NCBI GenBank assembly: GCA_003599425.1
Contig: QZKC01000094.1
Span: 1-63,245, forward strand
DNA: 63,245 nucleotides
Reading direction: 5' to 3'
DNA from: Nitrospiraceae bacterium
GTDB taxonomy: Bacteria; Nitrospirota; Thermodesulfovibrionia; UBA6902
Part shown: positions 28,526 to 46,543 of the stretch, piece after piece
How positions within the stretch are numbered: position 1 is the first letter of the stretch
How the letters are laid out: every line of letters starts with the position of its first letter
The notes under the pieces: model-generated
Databases searched by the model: none
Told to the model about the DNA's origin: nothing
The model's input: the letters and a program-made list of their open reading frames with translations, nothing else
Translations under genes and position numbers: made by a program

Positions 28526-29865
28526 GATAGTGTAACCTCAATTGTGTGAAATTAAATATAAGGTAAAAAAGGGCGCGCCTCCTATAAAATATTTGCTACG
28601 GCAAATAACAAAAGATTAAAAGGAGGAGCACCCATGGAAATCAAAATTAGCGTACCAGAAGCAGTGGAATTAATCAAAGGATTGCAGGAGAGACCGTCAA
28701 GGATATTTGAGATGGCCACAATGAATGTACAAAAAGATGTAGGTAATTACCTGACGAACCTGATGAAGGCAGAGTTGACGCATATTTTAGGGCGTGAGGA
28801 ATATGAGCGGAGCGACGGAGAAACAAATCACCGCAACGGCAGCTATGCACGCAAGTTTTGCATCAAAGGGATAGGAGAAGTAGATACAAAAGTACCGAGG
28901 GACCGCAAGGGAGAATATCAGACACAAGTGTTGCCCCGCAGTAAACAATATGAGAACAGGATAGCGGAGGATATCTCGATGATGTATCTTGCGGGGATAA
29001 GTACACGCACACTGTCGATGTTGAGCAAACGTCTTATCGGCAGGGCTCTTTCCCATGAAGAAGTCAGTAGTGCCAACAGAGAGTTGACAGATGCGGTAGA
29101 GAAGTGGCGTAGCCGCGATTTATCCGGGGAGAAGATAAAGTACATATTTGTAGACGGGGTAATTTTCAAGATGAGGCTTGAATACAGCGTAGAGAATGTC
29201 GCAGTGCTTGTGGCGATAGGAGTAACAGAGAGTGGGGCCAAATTAGTGCTTGGACTGCAAAGCGGAGACAAGGAGTCAGCGACGAGCTGGAGGGAGTTTT
29301 TCAGGGATCTCAAAAGCAGAGGGCTTGATGGGTCATCAGTAACATTGGGAATAATGGATGGTCTTAGCGGCTTAGAGAAAGTATTTGAAGAGGAATTTCC
29401 CAACTCTAAGGTGCAGAGGTGTCAGGTGCACGTAGCTCGTAATGTATTGGCAAAAGTTCCTCATAAGATAAAAAAGGAAGTAGCAGATGATCTCAGATCC
29501 ATATTCTACGCATCCTCAAAGAAAAAGGCAGATGACTTTTACAAAACATTTAATAAGAAATGGGAGAAGGAGCTTCCCTCGGCAGTAAAATCATTACGTC
29601 AGTCAATAAATGCGTGTTTAACATTTTTCAAGTATCCTGAGGAAGAATGGATATCTTTACGGACAACAAACATAGTTGAACGACTGAACAAGGAATTCAA
29701 GCGCAGGACAAAGCCTATGGAGATAGTAGCCGGAGAGAATGCATGTTACAGACTTCTGGCATTTATATCATTAAAGATGGAGTTGAGTTGGAGAGCAAAC
29801 CCAATAGGAAAGGTGCGACCCAATTTACCGTTATATCAAATTCACACAAAATAGTTGACATTATC
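28526..29865 (+). mobile_element. IS256-family insertion sequence, 1340 bp, complete
   Basis: 28-bp imperfect terminal IRs (GATAGTGTAACCTCAATTGTGTGAAATT vs GATAATGTCAACTATTTTGTGTGAATTT, 21/28 identical); 8-bp target duplication ATTCCTTT at 28518-28525 and 29866-29873. Confidence 0.95.
28634..29854 (+). CDS. IS256 (Mutator) family transposase
   Basis: VPRDR, YIFVDG, MDGLSGL, QRCQVH..RN, RTTNIVERLNKEFKRRT. Confidence 0.96.
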   Translation: MEIKISVPEAVELIKGLQERPSRIFEMATMNVQKDVGNYLTNLMKAELTHILGREEYERSDGETNHRNGSYARKFCIKGIGEVDTKVPRDRKGEYQTQVLPRSKQYENRIAEDISMMYLAGISTRTLSMLSKRLIGRALSHEEVSSANRELTDAVEKWRSRDLSGEKIKYIFVDGVIFKMRLEYSVENVAVLVAIGVTESGAKLVLGLQSGDKESATSWREFFRDLKSRGLDGSSVTLGIMDGLSGLEKVFEEEFPNSKVQRCQVHVARNVLAKVPHKIKKEVADDLRSIFYASSKKKADDFYKTFNKKWEKELPSAVKSLRQSINACLTFFKYPEEEWISLRTTNIVERLNKEFKRRTKPMEIVAGENACYRLLAFISLKMELSWRANPIGKVRPNLPLYQIHTK

Positions 29866-35387: not shown

Positions 35388-36881
35388 TTATAATTTCCCC
35401 CGGGGATAATCTCTGAACATTTGCCTGATCGTGCTGTTGCTGCGCAACTTTTCAGTCAATTCGATTAGCCCTCCTTGATCGGCGTATTCAATAGCAGTGT
35501 AGATAGCACTTGCTGCCCTCTCATTTACTACTTCTGCGTAAGGGTTTCTTTCAAGACCGCTCACAGCAGTTTTCAGTGCCGTTTCTGCCTCCTGCTTACG
35601 CCCTGATTTAAGGTAGGTCTCAAAGATCAGGAAGTCTGTCGGGAATGAGCCGTTCAGCATTACGTCCTTCTTATAATATTCAAGCGCCTCTGCCGGCCTG
35701 CCGAGATCGCGCAGGCAATGGGCGAAGTGGTAGAGACCGTTTCTCATGTCCGGGACAGCGGAAAATCCTGCCCTGAAAAACCGTTCAGCCTCCCCGCACT
35801 GACCTTTCACAAAATAAAGCGATCCAAGGTGCGATAACCCGGTACAGTAAAGTTTATCGGCATTGCAGGCTGCCATTGCTGCATCGAATGCCTTTTCAGA
35901 TTCTCCCTTAAGCATATAAGCATACGCTTTATACAATAGAAGCGATGGTTCTTTGAATTGGGGCGTATACAGTTGAATGAGCCTCAATATTTCATCAGGA
36001 TTGACACCGCGGTATTCATTATCTATTTGTTGCAAGAGAGCAAGTACTTCAGGGGGCGGTCCTTTAAGCAAGTCCGGCTTCTCAAGGATCATTGCCGCGG
36101 TATTACCAACCCACCGGAGATGCGGCTGGAGATAATCACCATTCACGGAATAACTGATAGCGGCACCCTGAATGTGGTAATGTTTTTCTGAAAGAGCATC
36201 AAACATCTCCTTCAATGCGGTAAGGTAGATGGCACGATGTTCATCAGAATACACAGGGAAAAAGTCAGCGTCAATGCTTAACAACACAGGGCTATTAATA
36301 TCGGGAAGCGACTCCAGTCCACAGACAGTAAATGGGATTCCATTCACCGAGCCATGAAACCGGTTATTCTCAAACAAAAAAGTCTGGATATCTTTATCAC
36401 TGAACATGACGGATCGTAAAAACCGTCGCAACTGTTCCTCAGTATCCCTTTGAGAAAAGAAATTATTAGGAATGACCCAATACACTTCCTTGAACATACT
36501 CAATCGCGCACCAGCGTAAATCCAGTTCCCTATATGGTACAGTCCATCGTCAGCGACCGAATCAGCATCAGCAAAACCTTTCCAGTCTCTTCGTCTGTAT
36601 AGATCTTCAAGCAAGGCCAGCTTTTCTTCTGGAATGCTACGGATATCATCGTGCGTATCAATATTGATAAGGACTGCATTATGTATCCCCTGTTCAGCCC
36701 ACTGAGCAAAGGCCTGACTATGATCTTCAACAACCAATGTATTCCTGACAGGTTCCCTGCCAAGAACAGGCGGTGGCTTTTCTTTCTCGCAACTGAAGAG
36801 ACCGAGCAGGATAAAAAAAAGAAAGGACAATTTGAGTCTCCAGAAAAATCCAAACACATTTAGATAAATTAGTTTGTTCAT
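35388..36881 (-). CDS. Putative lipoprotein: UPF0489-like (arginase/deacetylase-like) domain plus TPR repeats
   Basis: Lipobox LFSC; INIDTHDD, IGNWI...YWVIP, LLSIDADFF; C-terminal TPR-like helices. Confidence 0.6.
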   Translation of the reverse strand: MNKLIYLNVFGFFWRLKLSFLFFILLGLFSCEKEKPPPVLGREPVRNTLVVEDHSQAFAQWAEQGIHNAVLINIDTHDDIRSIPEEKLALLEDLYRRRDWKGFADADSVADDGLYHIGNWIYAGARLSMFKEVYWVIPNNFFSQRDTEEQLRRFLRSVMFSDKDIQTFLFENNRFHGSVNGIPFTVCGLESLPDINSPVLLSIDADFFPVYSDEHRAIYLTALKEMFDALSEKHYHIQGAAISYSVNGDYLQPHLRWVGNTAAMILEKPDLLKGPPPEVLALLQQIDNEYRGVNPDEILRLIQLYTPQFKEPSLLLYKAYAYMLKGESEKAFDAAMAACNADKLYCTGLSHLGSLYFVKGQCGEAERFFRAGFSAVPDMRNGLYHFAHCLRDLGRPAEALEYYKKDVMLNGSFPTDFLIFETYLKSGRKQEAETALKTAVSGLERNPYAEVVNERAASAIYTAIEYADQGGLIELTEKLRSNSTIRQMFRDYPRGKL

Positions 36882-37159: not shown

Positions 37160-37921
37160 TTATTGCTGTTTTTTATCTTCCTTCGTCCTGTCCCACCGGG
37201 AGCTGGGGTTCTCCTTGACGCGGATATCAATCCCCCGGGTAACCTCCCCCATTTGAACTGTGGCTTTTTCAACAGGTTTACTCGCGCCCACAGCTCTTAC
37301 GTAATATTCGCCATCCTCATCAACACGTACGATATATTTGCCGTCAAAGCCTGTTCTCCTGTCAGATATGTAGACAAGATTCTGTATCTGCGGATCGGTG
37401 GATGCATAGACAAGCACCCCTTCAGCAGGCGTCCCGTCCTTAAGGAGCACCTTGCCTTCAATAGCAGTTTTACCGGCAGGAAGCCATTCCTCTTTAAATG
37501 GCACTGCCCCTGAGATTACGCCAATATTTGTTGCTCCCTCTGATGTAACCATATAGGTCTTTATCTCGCGGCTGTCCCACGCAGGCCAGGTCGGGTCTCC
37601 CGCGTCGATAGGAGGTCCGGGGTTCTCACCTGAAAGCTTCTTTGTCGCCAGCATATAGTACTCCCCTGCCGGGATGATTTCGCTGAAGCTTCCGTCCGCC
37701 CCAGTGCGGCTAAAGAAATCGCACATCCTCCAGTACTCACGCCTGAAAGGCGAGCCCGATTCAACCCTGTAAAGGCAGACCTGTGCCTCGGATAATGCAT
37801 CACCGTTAATAGTCAGGATCGTCCCCTTTATCATGCCAAATTCTGTTACCTGAGCAAAGGCAGGGTTCAGCGCCAAAATCAGGCAAAGTCCAGAGAACAG
37901 TGTGATAATCAGTTTTCTCAT
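37160..37921 (-). CDS. Secreted protein with two carboxypeptidase-regulatory-like beta-sandwich domains
   Basis: Signal peptide (AFA-Q); repeated I.G...G.P..G..V...T..DG.[FY]......G.YY pattern. Confidence 0.7.
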   Translation of the reverse strand: MRKLIITLFSGLCLILALNPAFAQVTEFGMIKGTILTINGDALSEAQVCLYRVESGSPFRREYWRMCDFFSRTGADGSFSEIIPAGEYYMLATKKLSGENPGPPIDAGDPTWPAWDSREIKTYMVTSEGATNIGVISGAVPFKEEWLPAGKTAIEGKVLLKDGTPAEGVLVYASTDPQIQNLVYISDRRTGFDGKYIVRVDEDGEYYVRAVGASKPVEKATVQMGEVTRGIDIRVKENPSSRWDRTKEDKKQQ

Positions 37922-38007: not shown

Positions 38008-41000
38008 CTACCACTGCGTTACGTTGTTCCACTTCTGTTCTGTCCAACTGTTCCCGGGCTGACTATCATGGCATGTGCGGTACGCAGGCGGAGTCGATTT
38101 GCTTGTCCCGACATTGCCGAAGAAGTAAGCGCCTCCCGTATTTTGATTCCACACAAACGATTCATCCTTCTCGGTAAACCCGCCACCACCGGCAGGAAAA
38201 CGGCCAGCACCTGCGCCTTTGTCAGCTACTCTTGAGTATTGCGTTCCGTTTCCTCCTGAAGCAACGCGCCCCCTGTGGTTGTCGTTCAGGCAGTTAGTCA
38301 CCATCATCCTCGGCAAGGCGGAATTATGGGGCGAATGGCACTTTGAACATGTAAACGCATGCCGTGTATTATTTGCATTTCCGCCAGTGCTCTGTGCCCA
38401 ACCCTTGACCGTGTCATGGATCCTGTCATAGGTCTTCCAGGTGTTGTTACTGTCAGGATCTATCTGCGACTTTGGATGGCAGTTGAGGCAGAGGCCCGCA
38501 AAATCATTGATGGTCTCAGTGATCTTCGCAGCGGCATTGTAATCCCATTTCACAATATCATTGTATTTGCCGTTCATCGTATCAGCAGTAAAGGTGTTCT
38601 GGTCTATGTTGTATCCCGGACGGCTGCCGATGTACTGGCGGGCTGCCCTTCTGCCGCCGCCCCGGCTGTCATTTGTGGTTGAGGGCGCAGCGTCTTCTCT
38701 GTAGGGAGAGGTCATCCAGGTGCCCTTGAGCATGGGCACAGCATAATCCTGATTTAGTGTGGGACTTACCCCATGCGGGTCATGGCAGGGTGTACAGAGA
38801 CCATTAATGGTTTTGCTGGGGGTTGTGTTCAAAGCTGATGAAGCAGAGAGATGACCGCCCTTATTTGTTCCTGCTCCTGCTTTATAGGTATATCTCTGCT
38901 GAGGACCCGGTGTCCCCAGCCCAAAATACGGGGTGTCGAGATATCCCCGTATCGGCTGTGAAGCCCCATATGTCCCCTGATATCCCCAAGGAGTTGTACC
39001 TGCCTCTACTGTCTCATGGCAGTCAAAGCAGAGAGCTGCCCCTGCATTGTATTGGTTCTTGTTACCGGTAGACCCACCAGCCGCAGGCTTGTAGGTCATT
39101 GCATAACCGCCTTTACCTGCTATCGTGCTCTTCAGGTTACCTCCCTTAGTTGCATCACTTGTATAACTTGTTGTCGTGCCTTCTACATCCGAACCATGTG
39201 AGTTGTGGCAATCAAAACAGGCAACGTTGGTATTCCCGCTCGTATCAGGCCATGTGTCATTCAGATCATAGCCCTGTTGATTTATATACGCAACTCCATG
39301 GGAAGAGTGTGCCTTTGTCATGGCAGCTTTTCCATTCGTATTTGCACCGCTGTACTTGCCCCACTGAGTTGAGGTCTCAGGGGTGTAACGCGCATTGATG
39401 CTCGTTCCCTTGGTCCAGGTGCCCCCATTCGCGAGGCAATCCTCTCTTTTCTTATCATAGGTCGGATTGCTGCAGGTCCCATCCCATGCGTATTCATTGG
39501 GCGTATTGCCATCTCCAAATGGCTGTGTGCTGTTGTTCTCATTATTGTGGCAACTGATACAGTGCTGGTTCATCTCAAGGATCTGTGTCCTCGATCCATC
39601 AGTAGTATATCTGACGGCTGTTACCCCAACGCTATAGCTCGCAGGCCTTGTCCCGAACCCGTAGATAACCAGGTCGACCGCTGAACCGGGACTGAGCGAT
39701 CCTCCATGATATGTGGTATTCACACTACCATCAGCATTTGCTTCCCAGTGGCACTGATAGCAGTGCGTCTCATTCACTGCAACCCCCTGCACATGATGTG
39801 AGGACGAGTTGAACTGTCCCATCACAGCAACCCTGTCTCCCATGGCAATTGCATGGCAGATCGTGCATGCCCCATCAGGCCTGAACCCAACTTCATGTGG
39901 ATGGCAGAGCGTGCAGTCATACATGGCAGGTTCAGACTCATGTAGCCGTGCCGTGGGTGAGTTAAACCGGTGATACAACGTTTTGGTGTGGCAGACCTCG
40001 CATATTTTCTGTGATGTTGTATGCACGATAGTATCATCACCGAATCCTCCAGCCCCTGTTTGACTAAATACAACTTCTGCTCCCGGGAAACCTCCTGCAG
40101 GAGCTGTGACAGATTCTTTTATCCTCTTTATATTACTTGTGTTGATCGCGTGGCACGTGGCACAGGTGAAGCCGCCATACTCTCCCGATGGGGTCCCCCA
40201 CGTCCCGCCCCAGTATTTATTGCCGGGAAACCTCAGGCCATTATGCAACATCGAATCATCGCTCCAGACAGCCGGGACCACATGATGAATTTCCTGGACG
40301 TTACTATTGCTGCCTGTATAACCGTCACTGTCCTGATAGGTGACCCGCACATGATATGCTTTCCCATTCGTCAATCCCGTGATCTGATACATGAAAGGAC
40401 TCATGCTATGCGTGACTACTGCTGAACCGAGACTGAAATCAACCTGGTCATAGCCCCACTCAATCAGAAGGGTATTGTCCTTGTCTGAATCTTCAGTATA
40501 CCGGGCAGTAACGTAAATGGACTGGTCTGCCGGGCTTGCAGCAGCAATTCCTGGAGCTGTGCGGGGTTCATAAACCGGTGTGTGAATATTGAGCTGGTTT
40601 GAATCTGCGCTCTCACACGGTTCATTGGTGCTGTAACCCCGGACAGTATAGGTGTAGTCCGTGTCCGGAGAAACGGTCGTGTCCGTATAGGTCCCTCTGC
40701 ATGGTATTACGTCTGCAAGGAATGAACCATTCCGGTAAATCTTATAGTATTCATTGTTCGTGCATTCAAAAGACCACATGAGAGTAACTTCATAGGACTC
40801 AAGGAATGAATACGAGAGGTCATCCGTTGTATTGGCGTAACAGGCCCTCCAGGTAAAGTCTCTTGCTGTTGTTGTTATGATGTTGCCGCAGTCAGGGTCT
40901 GTCCCACGGACATCAAGCGTATATGTAACGCCATCTGTATAGTTGCCACATTTTGAGCCACCGTTAATTGATGCAGGAATAGTACTGTTTGATGTCCAGT

Positions 41001-42819
41001 CAATACAGACATCTGAACCGCCGACGTGATATTCAATATACGCAGAATACCAGTAATTGCTGAAAGAACCGCTGTCTGCCGGCCATGTTGCAGGATATGC
41101 CACTGTATCATCTGTGGACACACTTACTGAATTCCAGCGGCCTCTTCCTGTCTGGAAGTCACTGCCTGAGGCGCTGCTGCTATAACGAACGTCAAAGCCT
41201 GTCCCACCGCCGTTGCTCTTATAGGCAATCCATACCGGCTGGCCTGAAGGTATAGTGATATCAGGTCCTGTATAGGTAATGGTCAGCCACTGGTTTGTAG
41301 CGCTTCCGCTTGTTGTCCCAAAGTCATAGAGAAGTGTGGCTCCCGACGGCCCCGCTGTCAGGCTTCCTCCAGTGTATACGGCAAGCCTGACCTGATCTCC
41401 ATGATTAGCACCCACATAAATTGATACAGATTTTAAATGCATGTTCGAAGATGAGGGTGCGTTGCCGCTCATTACTCTCGCAAAGTTCGCTTTTGTCGAA
41501 GATACCCCCACATTGGTCTTACCCCAGTTATAAGTCGTTGCTGTACCGGGAGTAGATATCATATACTCAATCGATTCTACGTCGCCTGTTTTGCTGAACA
41601 TGGTGCTTGCATTATAAGGATCCCCTTTTGCTATCTGGCCTGCAGGGATCGTTATTGTGGAAGGGTCAGGGTCAGTACAGGTCGCACCTGTTTCATATGT
41701 CAGATAATACGAATACCAGTAATTGCTAAAGGTACCGCTATCTGAAGGCCACGTAGCGGGGAATGCAACAGACTCATCTGTTGATACCTGCCCGCCGGAC
41801 TGAAACCGGCCGTTTGCTGTCTGAAAATCGCCGGCATTTGCACTGCTGGAAGAATACTGGACAGCAAAACCTGAATCATTCCCTTTGACCGCTACCCAGA
41901 GAGGAGCGTTCTTTAAAATGAGCGGACCTGCAGGGCAGGTGAGCGTAAGGAACTGGTTGGTCCCGCTGCCGCTTGTAGCGCCAGCATCACAGAGAAGCGT
42001 TGCCCCGTCAGGCCCGGATGACAGGTCACCACCCTGATATACAGCAACCCTGACCTGGCTTGAGTGACTGTTCCCTACATATACGGAGACGCTCTTGAGC
42101 TTCATCCCGTCAACATTTGGAGACGTGCCTCCCATGACCCGCACAAAATTCACATTTGTGTTCGTGCCGTTTGCCGCAGTGCGTCCCCAGTTGGTCTGTA
42201 CAGGAGGAGTATAGTCAACCTCAGCATAAAGCTGGGTAGCACGCATAGCAGTGGAATTTGTGTGGTCGATGATAGCCACCAGGCTGTCAATCTCTGACCA
42301 TGTCCATGCAGCGCCTGTCTGGGGGTTGGTATTATATGTGCTTCCTGTAAAAAGGGCATATGTTGACGATGACGAAGTCTGACCACTGCTAAAGTAGCTG
42401 GACCCGTTGGTCTTTACCCCTATAGTAAATGTTGAACTCCCGCTTGCAGCGTCTCTTCTTGCGCGGGTCTTGATCGTAACAGAGTTGATGGCTCCCGTCT
42501 CTGTAGTATGGTTATCAAGCTCAAGATAATAATAATTAGCAGTTCCTGAGGAACTTCCATAGGAAGTATCGCTGTCGTTCGAATCAAGGGCAGTGGCAGC
42601 CGTTCCGCCTGAGTATGTAACATTATCACCAGTGGAAGAACCGGACGGATAGAGTGTCAGGATGGTTGCCCAGGACCCCAATGCATTCAATAACAGAAGC
42701 GCCACCGTGAGGGCAAATGACAAGAATATATTATTCATGAGTAATCCTCGTATAAAGGTGCCAAACTCGTTCTTACTATCGGCAGTTGTCTTAATATTCT
42801 TTATCTCTCTCTTCATCAT
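38008..42819 (-). CDS. Large extracellular multiheme cytochrome c (11 CxxCH) with N-terminal beta-rich repeats and FN3-like domains
   Basis: CATCH, CEVCH, CTLCH, CTICH, CYQCH, CISCH, CFDCH x2, CTPCH, CLNCH, CSKCH, all in the C-terminal half; alternative start ATG 42738 with GAGGA RBS. Confidence 0.88.
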   Translation of the reverse strand: MMKREIKNIKTTADSKNEFGTFIRGLLMNNIFLSFALTVALLLLNALGSWATILTLYPSGSSTGDNVTYSGGTAATALDSNDSDTSYGSSSGTANYYYLELDNHTTETGAINSVTIKTRARRDAASGSSTFTIGVKTNGSSYFSSGQTSSSSTYALFTGSTYNTNPQTGAAWTWSEIDSLVAIIDHTNSTAMRATQLYAEVDYTPPVQTNWGRTAANGTNTNVNFVRVMGGTSPNVDGMKLKSVSVYVGNSHSSQVRVAVYQGGDLSSGPDGATLLCDAGATSGSGTNQFLTLTCPAGPLILKNAPLWVAVKGNDSGFAVQYSSSSANAGDFQTANGRFQSGGQVSTDESVAFPATWPSDSGTFSNYWYSYYLTYETGATCTDPDPSTITIPAGQIAKGDPYNASTMFSKTGDVESIEYMISTPGTATTYNWGKTNVGVSSTKANFARVMSGNAPSSSNMHLKSVSIYVGANHGDQVRLAVYTGGSLTAGPSGATLLYDFGTTSGSATNQWLTITYTGPDITIPSGQPVWIAYKSNGGGTGFDVRYSSSASGSDFQTGRGRWNSVSVSTDDTVAYPATWPADSGSFSNYWYSAYIEYHVGGSDVCIDWTSNSTIPASINGGSKCGNYTDGVTYTLDVRGTDPDCGNIITTTARDFTWRACYANTTDDLSYSFLESYEVTLMWSFECTNNEYYKIYRNGSFLADVIPCRGTYTDTTVSPDTDYTYTVRGYSTNEPCESADSNQLNIHTPVYEPRTAPGIAAASPADQSIYVTARYTEDSDKDNTLLIEWGYDQVDFSLGSAVVTHSMSPFMYQITGLTNGKAYHVRVTYQDSDGYTGSNSNVQEIHHVVPAVWSDDSMLHNGLRFPGNKYWGGTWGTPSGEYGGFTCATCHAINTSNIKRIKESVTAPAGGFPGAEVVFSQTGAGGFGDDTIVHTTSQKICEVCHTKTLYHRFNSPTARLHESEPAMYDCTLCHPHEVGFRPDGACTICHAIAMGDRVAVMGQFNSSSHHVQGVAVNETHCYQCHWEANADGSVNTTYHGGSLSPGSAVDLVIYGFGTRPASYSVGVTAVRYTTDGSRTQILEMNQHCISCHNNENNSTQPFGDGNTPNEYAWDGTCSNPTYDKKREDCLANGGTWTKGTSINARYTPETSTQWGKYSGANTNGKAAMTKAHSSHGVAYINQQGYDLNDTWPDTSGNTNVACFDCHNSHGSDVEGTTTSYTSDATKGGNLKSTIAGKGGYAMTYKPAAGGSTGNKNQYNAGAALCFDCHETVEAGTTPWGYQGTYGASQPIRGYLDTPYFGLGTPGPQQRYTYKAGAGTNKGGHLSASSALNTTPSKTINGLCTPCHDPHGVSPTLNQDYAVPMLKGTWMTSPYREDAAPSTTNDSRGGGRRAARQYIGSRPGYNIDQNTFTADTMNGKYNDIVKWDYNAAAKITETINDFAGLCLNCHPKSQIDPDSNNTWKTYDRIHDTVKGWAQSTGGNANNTRHAFTCSKCHSPHNSALPRMMVTNCLNDNHRGRVASGGNGTQYSRVADKGAGAGRFPAGGGGFTEKDESFVWNQNTGGAYFFGNVGTSKSTPPAYRTCHDSQPGNSWTEQKWNNVTQW

Positions 42820-42829
42820 TCAATTTACC

Positions 42830-45800
42830 TCATTCATCTGTCCGTGGCACATCTTGATGGCAAGCTGCGCATGTAGAGATATTCGTATTCCAGGTAATAT
42901 CAAACCCGTTATGGCAAGATACGTTTGAACAGGTGCCGTTACTGTAGGTTGCCTGACTGGCCAGTGTAGCCTTGGAGCTGTCATATGAAGATGCGCCCTG
43001 CTTGTAGCCGTTGTTCCTCTGCCAATAGGTGTTCAGCTCAGTCACGGTCGTTATGTCGTCCCTGATCTGCGCTTTTGACCTGATGATAACATTGGCAAAA
43101 TTGATATCAGCAGTACCGGTCACATGACTCGTCGCAGACGGATCAATGACCATTGTACCTACAGGAGTAGCTGCATGACATACGGCACAGACCGTGTTCT
43201 TGTCATTTGCAGCCATCTTCACTACATTGTTATGACAGAGATTACAGTTGATCGTTGTCGATGTGTTAGGATCGCCATGTCCTCCGCCTGAGGCTGCGCC
43301 GGCGGGCAGCAGACCATTCGTACCGTTATATATGGTGTCATAATGAATAGCGATCCTGCCATGTGTCATATGTGAGCTTGTATCTGGCATGTTGCCGTGG
43401 CAGTCATCGCACTTATCGCCTACAAAGGTCCCACCATACCAGTTGGGTGATGACTTGTACTGATAGGTAGATCCGTCAAAGTAGCCGCTGCTGTGACAGT
43501 ATACGCTTGAGCAGGTAACGCTGACACGCTGTGTCTGGGTATAGCTCTGAACAGTATTATTCTTTCCCTTCATGGTGCCTGCCGCTCCCGTGTCATTGGG
43601 GTCAAGGTTCAGGTTGATCACGCCATTCATGTGTGTTGCTGAAGACTGCGGATGGCAGTAGCCACATCCCTTGTTCGGCACGCCGCCAAGATTGCTGTAT
43701 GAGTACCAGTTCGGCAGCTTTCCATAATCACTTGTTGAAACCTTTCCAACATACGGGGTCTGTACATGTCTGGCATGAGGTGTGTCAGCGATATTTCCCG
43801 GTGCCGGGCCGCCTTTGGATGAATGACAGTCGTTGCAGTTGTCTGAAATATTGACCGTTCCATTTATATGAGAGCTTGGATCAGTAAAACCTGTACCGGA
43901 AGCATTTACTCCGGCATTATGACAAATAATACAGTCAGTAGCCCCTTTGCCAGAATGTACTGCCAGTGATGATGGAGGATAACCATGACACCGCGAGCAG
44001 TCATTGGCTGCATTACCCGTAAGATAGTTTGTATTATTCCAGATCGGAGTCCTGTCTGCCCCGTTTGTAGTGCCCTTTGGCATCGCTCCGCCATGACAGT
44101 AAACATTTGAACACTGACCGCCTGAATAACTGGGAGTTGCACTGTTGCTTGAAGCCAGCGCGCCAAAGATGAGCTCTGCTGTTCCTGGAGTGGCATCATT
44201 TATATGCCCCGCAGCAGATACAATGGCAGGAACGATATGGCACTCGCTACATGCCACATTGCTGGATATTGTACTCTGCAGGTGTGCCCTATGCGCCCCG
44301 ACCTGTGCGTCAGTTGCCGCTGAATCTCCCGCAGTATCTGTAGGAGGCGCCTGGGTATAGGCAGGGGCCGGAGACGCGGTTGGAGTGCCATGGCACTTTG
44401 TGCACCCATCTATCCCGGTAAAATCCGTTCCCCACGTCGGGGAGGAATTGCCGTGACATGCTGCCGCAGAACATGTTCCATAACCATTTCCGGGCGTTCC
44501 GCCTTTTGTATATGAATTTGCTACGTCTATCGATTTATTTACATGATTTGAGTAGTTATACGATGATGCATCATTTGCTGCTCCTGTATGGCAATCACTG
44601 CAGCCATTGACCCCGGTTGTACCAAGGTGCGCAGCATGACTGCCACTCGTTAATCCTGATGCCTCTGTAACCTTATGACAGGTTCCACATGCTGCGCTTG
44701 CTGAATTTCCCCATGTAGGAATTGCATAGGCCGGAGTTGCTGAGTTTCCGTCCGTTGTTGACTGTCCTGTACTGTGGCAATATGCGGTTGTGCAGGTCGT
44801 ATATGCACTCGCCTTTGTCTTGTTTGACGGATATCCAAGGTCGCCTGCCGTTACGTCATATACATCGATATTACTATCAAGATGCTGTTCAGGTGGAGTA
44901 GTACCACGAACGGCACTGTCATGGCAATCTCCACACACCGCTGTGCTGTACAACGTTGTCGTCACATGCTTTGTATGGCTTCCGGTACCGGGAACATCCG
45001 CGTGGCATTCTGAACATCCGCCTCCGGGAGTGCCCCATGTAGGAGTTGTTTTCAGATTCCCTGTTGCGTCATCATGACATGATGCAGTTGAGCAGGTTCC
45101 ATAGCCGTTTCCGGGTGTGCCACCTGCTGTATAAGAGTTTGCTACATCTATTAATGCATTAATATGGTTTGCTGAATTATATGAAGAGGCATTATTTGCC
45201 GCTCCAGTATGACAGTCCCCACATCCGTTTACTCCGGTCGTTCCAAGATGTGCTGCATGGCTGCCACTGGTCAAGCCTGTAACATTATGACATGTCCCGC
45301 AGACGCCGCTTGCAGGGGTATCCCATAACGGTGACGCATAAGTCGGAGTAGATGAACTCCCGCTTGAAGTAGACTGTCCTGTGCTGTGGCAATAAATATT
45401 AGAACACGTTTTGTTATTATTGTTCGAGACAAATGTCACAGGAGCAGTTGTCGTAGCGTTATACGTTACCCCAGACTGACCATTATATGTCCCTCCTTGA
45501 TATGACCCGTTGAATAAATAGAATCCTAAGGTAACAGAAAGGCCATTATTATGGGTTGAACCTGTGCCAACACTGTTATAATGACAGGTTGCACAATCGT
45601 ACCCCTTTGTGTTGACATGTACATTGTGGGCACCGGCAGTTGAAGAACCTGTTACTCCGGGATTATTCACCAAACCATTTGGTCCCCCGGTAGCAGTATT
45701 GACTGTGGGGGGATATCCATGGCAGATATCGCAGGCAATCTTGAAGCCCTTCGTATGTTTATGACAATATGTGCAGTCCGTACCTGCATTATGGGCATGG

Positions 45801-46543
45801 TTCCCTGTAACATCATTCTTGTGATACGTGGACTGGGTATGACATACCTCGCAGACCCCATCATATGTTGCATCGCCGTCCGCAAATGAGTTTGTACCCG
45901 TTGAATTGAAAAAACGAACTGTTTTAATTCCACTGTTAGGCGTGGTGATTTTTTCTCTAATGAGACTCCCATAAACAATGATGAACGTATTCCCCGGGCT
46001 GACCTTTGTCAGATTGATAGTTCCCTCAACCGTGAGCGTGTCGATGTTATTTCCGGTAATTTTATAATTGTAGGAGTTTTGTGCAATGTTGGGAACAAGG
46101 ATCAAGCCCTGATACTGGTTATCTGTCCATCCAGCCCCTGTCTTTGTCAGTGACGTTGCATTCACTGAAGATACTACCCCCTGATAGATGTAACTGGCGC
46201 TTCCATAGGTCCTGAACTGCTTGTGTCCGTGCGGGTTATGGCAAACACGGCACTCAACCGTCCAGTCTCCGTAACTATTATCCGTCTGATAACTGGAATG
46301 GGTATTTACCCCCATCGCCCCCCAATGACAACTCCAGCACAGTTGGTTGTATTCAGTATCATCTATTCCATTCTGACCGTACGTCAGTCCCTCTATCATA
46401 AGCGAAGGTTGTGAACCCCACACATAATGGCAACTCTCACAATTGATCCCTTCTGTGCCGTTATGGGGAAAATCAAGCGCATACCCATGAGCTGAAAAAA
46501 AGCAAAGCGCCATAACTAATAGTATTCTGATAATTGTATTCAT
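42830..46543 (-). CDS. CxxxxCH/CxxCH-domain multiheme cytochrome c (23 CxxCH plus 7 CX4CH)
   Basis: Counted by hand; the repeating C-x4-CH...W...CxxCH unit is the Geobacter-type TIGR01904-like pattern; signal peptide. Confidence 0.92.
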   Translation of the reverse strand: MNTIIRILLVMALCFFSAHGYALDFPHNGTEGINCESCHYVWGSQPSLMIEGLTYGQNGIDDTEYNQLCWSCHWGAMGVNTHSSYQTDNSYGDWTVECRVCHNPHGHKQFRTYGSASYIYQGVVSSVNATSLTKTGAGWTDNQYQGLILVPNIAQNSYNYKITGNNIDTLTVEGTINLTKVSPGNTFIIVYGSLIREKITTPNSGIKTVRFFNSTGTNSFADGDATYDGVCEVCHTQSTYHKNDVTGNHAHNAGTDCTYCHKHTKGFKIACDICHGYPPTVNTATGGPNGLVNNPGVTGSSTAGAHNVHVNTKGYDCATCHYNSVGTGSTHNNGLSVTLGFYLFNGSYQGGTYNGQSGVTYNATTTAPVTFVSNNNNKTCSNIYCHSTGQSTSSGSSSTPTYASPLWDTPASGVCGTCHNVTGLTSGSHAAHLGTTGVNGCGDCHTGAANNASSYNSANHINALIDVANSYTAGGTPGNGYGTCSTASCHDDATGNLKTTPTWGTPGGGCSECHADVPGTGSHTKHVTTTLYSTAVCGDCHDSAVRGTTPPEQHLDSNIDVYDVTAGDLGYPSNKTKASAYTTCTTAYCHSTGQSTTDGNSATPAYAIPTWGNSASAACGTCHKVTEASGLTSGSHAAHLGTTGVNGCSDCHTGAANDASSYNYSNHVNKSIDVANSYTKGGTPGNGYGTCSAAACHGNSSPTWGTDFTGIDGCTKCHGTPTASPAPAYTQAPPTDTAGDSAATDAQVGAHRAHLQSTISSNVACSECHIVPAIVSAAGHINDATPGTAELIFGALASSNSATPSYSGGQCSNVYCHGGAMPKGTTNGADRTPIWNNTNYLTGNAANDCSRCHGYPPSSLAVHSGKGATDCIICHNAGVNASGTGFTDPSSHINGTVNISDNCNDCHSSKGGPAPGNIADTPHARHVQTPYVGKVSTSDYGKLPNWYSYSNLGGVPNKGCGYCHPQSSATHMNGVINLNLDPNDTGAAGTMKGKNNTVQSYTQTQRVSVTCSSVYCHSSGYFDGSTYQYKSSPNWYGGTFVGDKCDDCHGNMPDTSSHMTHGRIAIHYDTIYNGTNGLLPAGAASGGGHGDPNTSTTINCNLCHNNVVKMAANDKNTVCAVCHAATPVGTMVIDPSATSHVTGTADINFANVIIRSKAQIRDDITTVTELNTYWQRNNGYKQGASSYDSSKATLASQATYSNGTCSNVSCHNGFDITWNTNISTCAACHQDVPRTDE

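Follow-up and report, generated by a model that had tools for sequence, protein, structure and literature searches.

What does a multihaem cytochrome do with a front half of hundreds of residues that carries no haem motif? The question is raised by a gene in a 63,245-nucleotide contig of a Nitrospiraceae bacterium (GenBank assembly GCA_003599425.1, contig QZKC01000094.1; this whole stretch is called the window below), where an open reading frame (ORF) at 38008-42819 on the minus strand runs as a continuous frame of 1603 aa. The source genome is 2.9 Mb and ∼90% complete. OmcN-like giant extracellular cytochromes, whose role is not known (bioRxiv 10.1101/2022.05.22.492868), are common in metal-respiring and syntrophic bacteria; few studies have dealt with their long haem-free halves. 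A preliminary description of this DNA, made from the letters alone, had read the gene product as a chimera of adhesin and cytochrome and as a terminal reductase. We found that the product (the target below) is an OmcN-family cytochrome with a modular haem-free half, that its gene is paired with that of a giant wire-type cytochrome, and that the haem-free half contains two new domain families that are also present in viral contigs. Judging from sequences and structure models, we put at about one half the probability that the distal modules are lectin-like binders, which would hold the haem module, along with its 30-haem partner, at a surface that bears glycans; the extracellular location, the binding of a ligand, the nature of that ligand and the direction of electron flow are what we infer in this reading.

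Cytochromes fused to FN3 or adhesin-like domains were already known, an earlier case being a Geoalkalibacter 24-haem protein with two FN3 domains that is encoded downstream of a 38-haem cytochrome (PMC12016550). New here are the identity of the modules, with two unannotated beta families shared with phage contigs, one of them in tandem; an explicit definition of the constant 11-haem OmcN-type module; and the conserved pairing of the module gene with TIGR01904 cytochromes across phyla.

The constant 11-haem module and its giant partner

The target has exactly 11 CxxCH motifs (aa 886, 940, 969, 985, 1020, 1087, 1201, 1264, 1342, 1444, and 1491), and the haems begin only after about aa 870, as had been described. 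A motif scan found no CxxCH in aa 1-885, and neither CX3-4CH nor CxxCK anywhere in the protein. The fusion is genuine: ∼870 aa of extracytoplasmic beta-domains, rich in Ser/Thr/Gly/Tyr and free of haem, are joined to an 11-haem unit. An assembly chimera or a pseudogene was rejected because the frame is intact and independent metagenome-assembled genomes (MAGs) share the architecture at 67-88% identity.

The haem-bearing part, aa 873-1603 (38011..40203, minus strand), has no Pfam or NCBIfam model and was delimited here by homology. A c7-like trihaem head is followed by a tail that is sparse in haems and finishes with WNNVTQW; across the whole module there is about one haem per 66 aa. The head (aa ∼931-990, nt 39850-40029) holds haems 2-4 and matches Pfam Cytochrome_C7 (E 2e-8) and, at the profile level, the c7 trihaem domains of GSU1996 and its kind in PDB (3OV0, 1RWJ; PF14522, TIGR04257; E 5e-7). 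This likeness covers ∼60 of the 731 module residues, and the seven-haem tail is without a solved relative. A PDB sequence search with the whole target and a profile search with the module family both matched only c7 domains, at the head; titin and ephrin FN3 matches came from domains of other family members. An outer-surface cytochrome of the MtrC/OmcA/UndA type was also rejected: PF22113 (MtrC/MtrF domain II/IV) is not among the matches of the target, and the PDB sequence search gave no match of this type.

At least 548 homologues of aa 873-1603 were found. Among the 43 with full coverage, CxxCH sites 2-11 are kept in every one and site 1 in 38; many terminate in WNxxTPW, and a few bear extra domains C-terminally instead. 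The module is preceded by an N-terminal stretch of 289-1351 aa without CxxCH in 29 of the 43, and this stretch exceeds 500 aa in 27 of those 29. Named members include G. hydrogenophilus WP_214186308.1 (1875 aa), Geomobilimonas luticola WP_214174243.1 (1784 aa) and an IPT/TIG protein of Geobacter sp. AOG1 (1560 aa), in which 790-1150 haem-free aa are followed by exactly 11 CxxCH. These three are 44-47% identical to the target across the whole module, but the modules in front are different (Gly_rich_2, FN3, filamin, IPT/TIG, PF09099) and none of the three has the repeat family of the target. To treat the chimera as singular would thus be an overstatement, since a haem-free N-terminus with an 11-haem module is usual across a family of hundreds that includes cultured Geobacter. 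The anatomy of this family is a constant 11-haem module with a freely exchangeable beta front end.

The only family member with genetics is G. sulfurreducens OmcN (GSU2898). We equated it with AAR36290.1/WP_010943528.1 (2803 aa, annotated 'lipoprotein cytochrome c') by haem count (32 canonical plus CX4CH, against the published '34'), by gene order (an adjoining 979-aa cytochrome) and from the literature, not by a locus-tag look-up. OmcN is 47% identical to the target over target aa 985-1603 (E 9e-168), and a second match (28% identity, E 9e-20) spans aa 820-990, that is, the second FN3-like domain (FN3b, below) and the c7-like head. Like the target, OmcN has a long haem-free N-terminus (1136 residues, first haem at aa 1137) and a Trp-terminated end (..LWNTKSPW vs. 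..KWNNVTQW), and its gene directly follows one for a GSu_C4xC cytochrome. In contrast to the target, its head and tail are separated by ∼940 aa of CxxxxCH/CxxCH repeats, its haems number 32-34 instead of 11, and a lipobox-like Cys is present at its N-terminus. The two haem-free halves also differ: that of OmcN has no significant match to the repeat or the N-domain of the target, and the named repeat matches include no protein of G. sulfurreducens.

Directly upstream of the target gene (42830..46543, minus strand) is a gene for a 1237-aa cytochrome with 23 CxxCH and 7 CX4CH (30 haems) and TIGR01904 repeats (E 2e-46), the stop of which is 10 nt before the target ATG. Five loci were examined (the window, GCA_003358065.1 (L001), a DeMMO metagenome contig (L002), G. 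sulfurreducens (L008) and G. hydrogenophilus (L009)), and in each one the gene immediately upstream of that for the family member encodes a TIGR01904-type (GSu_C4xC) giant cytochrome. At aa ∼195-270 the upstream cytochrome has a c7-like head as in the target and OmcN (..VCEVCH..YH..DC.YCH.H..GFK..CD.CHG.PP), and this shared head gives the gene pair the look of an OmcN-like design split in two. The conserved pairing, the shared head and the occurrence of repeats and module within one OmcN chain make it likely that the two proteins are partners, both physically and in function. The 11-haem module, with its c7-like head and strongly conserved haem-sparse tail, is the constant part and, in the mechanism that we propose, would work with the 30-haem cytochrome; in G. 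sulfurreducens OmcN, such CxxxxCH/CxxCH repeats lie in the same polypeptide as the module, at the junction of head and tail.

Conservation in the module extends beyond the haem sites. Between Nitrospirota and Geobacter it is 47% identical over 620 aa, and the many invariant non-haem residues include SHHVQG, PFGDGxTP, GLCTPCHDPHGV, KGTW, and IDQNTF. Such conservation could mean that the module is an enzyme and not the end of a wire, with a catalytic site for a polymeric or particulate substrate that the N-terminal modules recruit, and the sparseness of the haems and the invariant Cys and Cys-His residues outside CxxCH (below) would fit this too. The conserved distal His residues, however, are enough to provide bis-His ligation at all 11 haems, the PDB searches described above revealed no likeness to known multihaem enzymes, and the regular pairing with a giant wire-like cytochrome points instead to a docking interface. 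We consider an enzymatic module quite improbable.

Some further features of the module were noted. Cys1510 (38290-38292) and Cys1583-His1584 (38068-38073; ..RTCHD..) lie outside CxxCH and are invariant across the 43 homologues; they could form a disulfide or a twelfth non-canonical haem site with cysteines far apart. The C-x11-C-x3-GGTW insert of the preliminary description was found where it had been placed, within the haem region (aa 1116-1135; 39415..39474, minus strand), between haems 6 and 7. It is part of a 24-residue insertion that is lineage-specific, being present in the target (P0001), P0002, P0004, and P0007 and not in P0003, P0005, P0006, or Geobacter OmcN, and it is probably a disulfide-stapled hairpin. 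The same genome encodes a second protein with an OmcN-type module, in a 2451-aa frame with 38 CxxCH and without a long haem-free region (G000:C27:23853-31205, minus strand; locus L018 6854-14206).

Modules of the haem-free half and their exchange

The variable part of the protein is a string of beta-modules of ∼820 aa, all encoded on the minus strand. The first of them, the N-domain (aa 51-206; 42202..42669), which the preliminary description had called jelly-roll-like, is beta-rich and unannotated, carries the motif LTLxPSG...NPQxGxAWTWSEID... and gave no match in Pfam, NCBIfam, PHROG or PDB. Domain BLAST and alignment indicated that it is a real recurrent domain: P0003, P0005 and the haem-free protein P0008 each have two copies of it, and P0002 and P0004 have none. 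We also considered whether the N-domain might be a third, divergent repeat copy and rejected this (hhalign probability 0.4%). Next come repeat copy R1 (aa 207-384; 41668..42201), a jelly-roll domain of a subtype with a Cys pair (C277, C295), and a short conserved linker (aa 385-428, CTDPDPSTITIPAGQ...; 41536..41667) that always stands before R2 in orthologues and in P0009. R2 (aa 429-606; 41002..41535) is constant in that every close orthologue has it, and the Cys-rich segment behind it (aa 607-690; 40750..41001) is conserved as one unit with the linker and R2. Two FN3/Ig-like beta-sandwich domains, FN3a (aa 691-775) and FN3b (aa 776-872), complete the string (40204..40749).

The tandem repeat of the preliminary description was borne out. 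Residues 210-383 and 431-607 are 55% identical (E 5e-61), and the profile-mapped copies (41674-42198 and 41005-41535) and their common end, ..TWP[SA]DSG[TS]FSNYWYS.Y..Y, agree with what had been seen by eye. The FN3-like domains fared less evenly. FN3a matches the FN3 array of P0013 (40% identity, E 7e-9) and phrog_1696 (E 4e-8), with no Pfam match; for FN3b the assignment held weakly, with Pfam fn3 (PF00041) at E 0.029 (15 bits vs. the cut-off of 25) and Big_3_5 at E 0.013. The haem-free region is rich in S/T/G/Y and poor in K/E, and it contains 10 Cys, an even number; this composition together with the ten Cys fits an extracytoplasmic protein.

Close orthologues (62-84% identical) share a constant unit of linker, R2, Cys-rich segment, FN3, FN3 and module, and it is the N-terminal end that varies: N-R1 in the target, R1 in P0002 and P0004, N-N in P0003 and P0005, and N in P0006. 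A tree of R1 and R2 copies, built to see whether R1 was a recent in-situ duplicate of R2, was mostly unresolved; the R1 copies of three orthologues form one clade (94/95), from which it follows that the R1 event is older than the divergence of the three.

Variation that lies mostly in module number (N only, N-N, R1 only, N-R1) would also suit a passive, ligand-free stalk or scaffold. The haem-free half would then be a rigid beta-sandwich rod that spaces the haem module from the cell, or a support for the 30-haem partner, and the gain and loss of modules would tune its length. FN3/Ig-like domains are classic spacers, and the haem-free N-termini of the OmcN family are long and very different in composition, so that the function of the family needs no single ligand specificity. 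On the other side, the haem-free domains are conserved as much as the haem module (R1 89%, R2 84%, FN3a 92%, and haem module 81% identity between the target and P0002), which argues against a neutral spacer. In an alignment of 14 repeat instances from unrelated architectures, ∼30 positions are invariant, and many of these are occupied by Trp, Tyr, Arg, Gln or Lys; in viral contigs the repeat stands alone or at a C-terminal tip, positions typical of binding domains. A stalk without a ligand thus appears rather unlikely to us.

The repeat family and its possible ligands

The preliminary description did not recognise the repeat family, and our searches agree with this: the repeat has no sequence match in Pfam (even at E up to 10), NCBIfam, PHROG or PDB. 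Its AlphaFold2 model is a confident all-beta jelly roll, with a predicted local distance difference test score (pLDDT) of 88.7 and a predicted template-modelling score (pTM) of 0.87. Foldseek of the isolated repeat placed it nearest to phage tail-fibre/tail-tip and lectin-like domains, not to a well-known passive spacer. The PDB matches, with template-modelling (TM) scores of 0.4-0.59, were the cyanophage A4 capsid protein, the Bxb1 tail tip (9D93), the lectin-like domain of C. difficile Cwp84 (4CI7), PHR domains and the Pgp3 C-terminal domain. Those in BFVD (TM 0.55-0.63) were collagen-repeat proteins of uncultured phages, which are probably tail fibres, phage minor tail proteins and small uncharacterised phage proteins. 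The repeat has the fold class of the Bxb1, collagen-repeat and Cwp84 domains (Foldseek probability about 1.0, E 3e-6 to 1e-3, TM 0.46-0.63) but, at 13-18% identity, no sequence-level relationship to them, and its likeness to phage receptor-binding (tail-fibre tip) domains is at the level of the fold only. Known lectin and carbohydrate-binding families (LamG_3, CBM6/35, galactose-binding-like) gave no profile match, and CBM6/CBM35 reached only TM 0.29-0.36. As a small, soluble-looking and confidently folded unit of ∼175 aa, the isolated repeat is directly testable, and both it and the N-domain family are candidates for new Pfam entries.

An exhaustive profile search among 1.84 billion representatives yielded 382 clusters of the repeat family, which is thus rare and belongs mainly to surface proteins without haem. 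The domains found alongside the repeat in a 50-cluster sample were LamG_3, beta-helix, DUF2341, PKD, RCC1, DUF11 and invasin, and none of these 50 clusters has haem motifs; four cytochromes are among the best 150 repeat-bearing clusters. Within the source genome, the repeat is confined to the target gene. Seven IMG/VR contigs contain it, as stand-alone ORFs of ∼200-226 aa, with RCC1 repeats or as the C-terminal tip of a protein of >1165 aa, and eight contain relatives of the N-domain (31-39% identical). The stand-alone ORFs are in contigs L014, L016, and L017, of which the last two are near-identical and come from different metagenomes.

How might such modules serve a cytochrome? In the reading that we favour, the target would be Sec-exported and then released to the cell surface or matrix, probably via a type II secretion system. 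The N-domain and R families, which otherwise occur in haem-free surface proteins and viral-class contigs and which close orthologues swap, duplicate and drop, would act as lectin-like modules that hold the cytochrome pair to the cell's own exopolysaccharide (EPS)/lipopolysaccharide matrix or to a partner cell, and the FN3 domains would be the stalk. An EPS/O-antigen cluster fills the other half of the window, and Rollefson and co-workers are said to have reported in 2011 that G. sulfurreducens anchors cytochromes via an exopolysaccharide network; taken together, these make anchoring in the cell's own matrix at least as plausible as the binding of a partner cell. If the modules do bind glycans or cells, this would explain how the cytochromes are positioned in the matrix or on a partner. 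An extended version, which we hold to be a long shot, is that both families are receptor-binding modules exchanged between phages and bacteria and captured by a Thermodesulfovibrionia lineage as an 'electrical adhesin'. Such an adhesin would recognise a specific cell-surface glycan, either a syntrophic partner's or one in the matrix of the cell itself, and would thereby wire the OmcN-type haem module and the 30-haem cytochrome to that cell, so that electrons pass directly between species; its partner specificity would be reprogrammed by module swapping.

Several results weigh against a lectin-like tether. The structural matches of the repeat are moderate, with TM scores of at most 0.63 and the low identities given above, and jelly rolls have many uses, including capsid decoration and pure scaffolding. 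A tblastn search with R1 found no repeat in GenBank phage records, and a phage-like metagenomic contig with a member of the repeat family (L010) has a single PHROG match, of unknown function; the phage link therefore rests on the IMG/VR contigs and on fold similarity only, and IMG/VR contigs may include misclassified cellular DNA. As an anchor motif is absent from the protein (neither lipobox nor sorting domain), its final location is uncertain. An AlphaFold2 model of aa 776-1603 from a 43-sequence alignment was unusable (pLDDT 42.8), so that neither the geometry of the haem chain nor an exposed terminal haem could be read from it. Finally, deletion of omcN in G. sulfurreducens left the reduction of soluble and insoluble acceptors, Fe(III) oxide included, unimpaired (Aklujkar et al., 2013, cited via bioRxiv 10.1101/2022.05.22.492868 and PMC6013743).

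The same deletion bears on the terminal reductase of the preliminary description, which we found unsupported. As a mineral-contact enzyme, the target would bind Fe(III)/Mn(IV) oxide with its jelly rolls, and terminal reduction at this contact would fall to the 11-haem module. The setting of the gene is compatible with this. It belongs to a minus-strand block of extracellular-electron-transfer genes that encode lipoproteins, a peptidyl-prolyl isomerase, 26- and 16-haem cytochromes, two OmcS-like cytochromes, a TPR protein, and a 940-aa NHL/BACON/FG-GAP protein. The closest relatives of the target are from Nitrospiraceae/Thermodesulfovibrionia MAGs labelled SURF_66 and DeMMO3_26, labels that we take to denote deep-subsurface sites. 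In G. soli, moreover, OmcN is 18-fold up on ferrihydrite (PMC6013743). The repeat, however, has its relatives in phage contigs and among surface proteins that carry LamG, beta-helix or PKD domains, a context that points to organic ligands (glycan or protein) rather than minerals, and the omcN deletion, which gave no Fe(III) oxide phenotype, also counts against a mineral-contact reductase. No known metal-oxide-binding motif was seen in the target, although no search was aimed at one. Direct reduction of a bound mineral is therefore doubtful in our view.

Signal region and neighbouring genes

The N-terminal signal region (aa 1-50; 42670..42819, minus strand), as read from the translation, has a long n-region, an ..IRGLLM.. 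motif and the hydrophobic core IFLSFALTVALLLL, and it lacks a lipobox Cys. Cleavage is likely to occur after GSWA. GAGG-type ribosome-binding sites precede both the ATG at 42819 and an internal ATG at 42738. An IRG[LM] motif directly before the h-region is common to the target and Geobacter family members (P0203, P0223, P0190, P0271; ..KKIRGMNLWVKVGLV..), which suggests a family-specific export or sorting signal. SurA, together with two GspD-type secretins of this genome that score above the family cut-off, indicates a diderm with type II secretion.

Downstream of the target is a gene for a CarboxypepD_reg-like protein of 253 aa (37160..37921, minus strand), conserved downstream of the orthologues as well. 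The operon is closed by the gene for a 497-aa TPR protein (35388-36881), which has a weak N-terminal match to UPF0489 and FlmR/OhkR-family peptide arginase; the NCBIfam score of the latter (E 9.5e-8) is far under the cut-off. A Mutator-family transposase is encoded at 28634-29854, inside the EPS/O-antigen cluster (Pfam E 4e-93). In the two Geobacter loci, the cytochrome/OmcN pair lies directly downstream of GeoRSP genes (PqqD, radical-SAM/SPASM, SPASM), which are found 1.7-4 kb into L008 and L009, and the 11-haem G. hydrogenophilus gene, adjoining these GeoRSP genes, occupies the omcN position.

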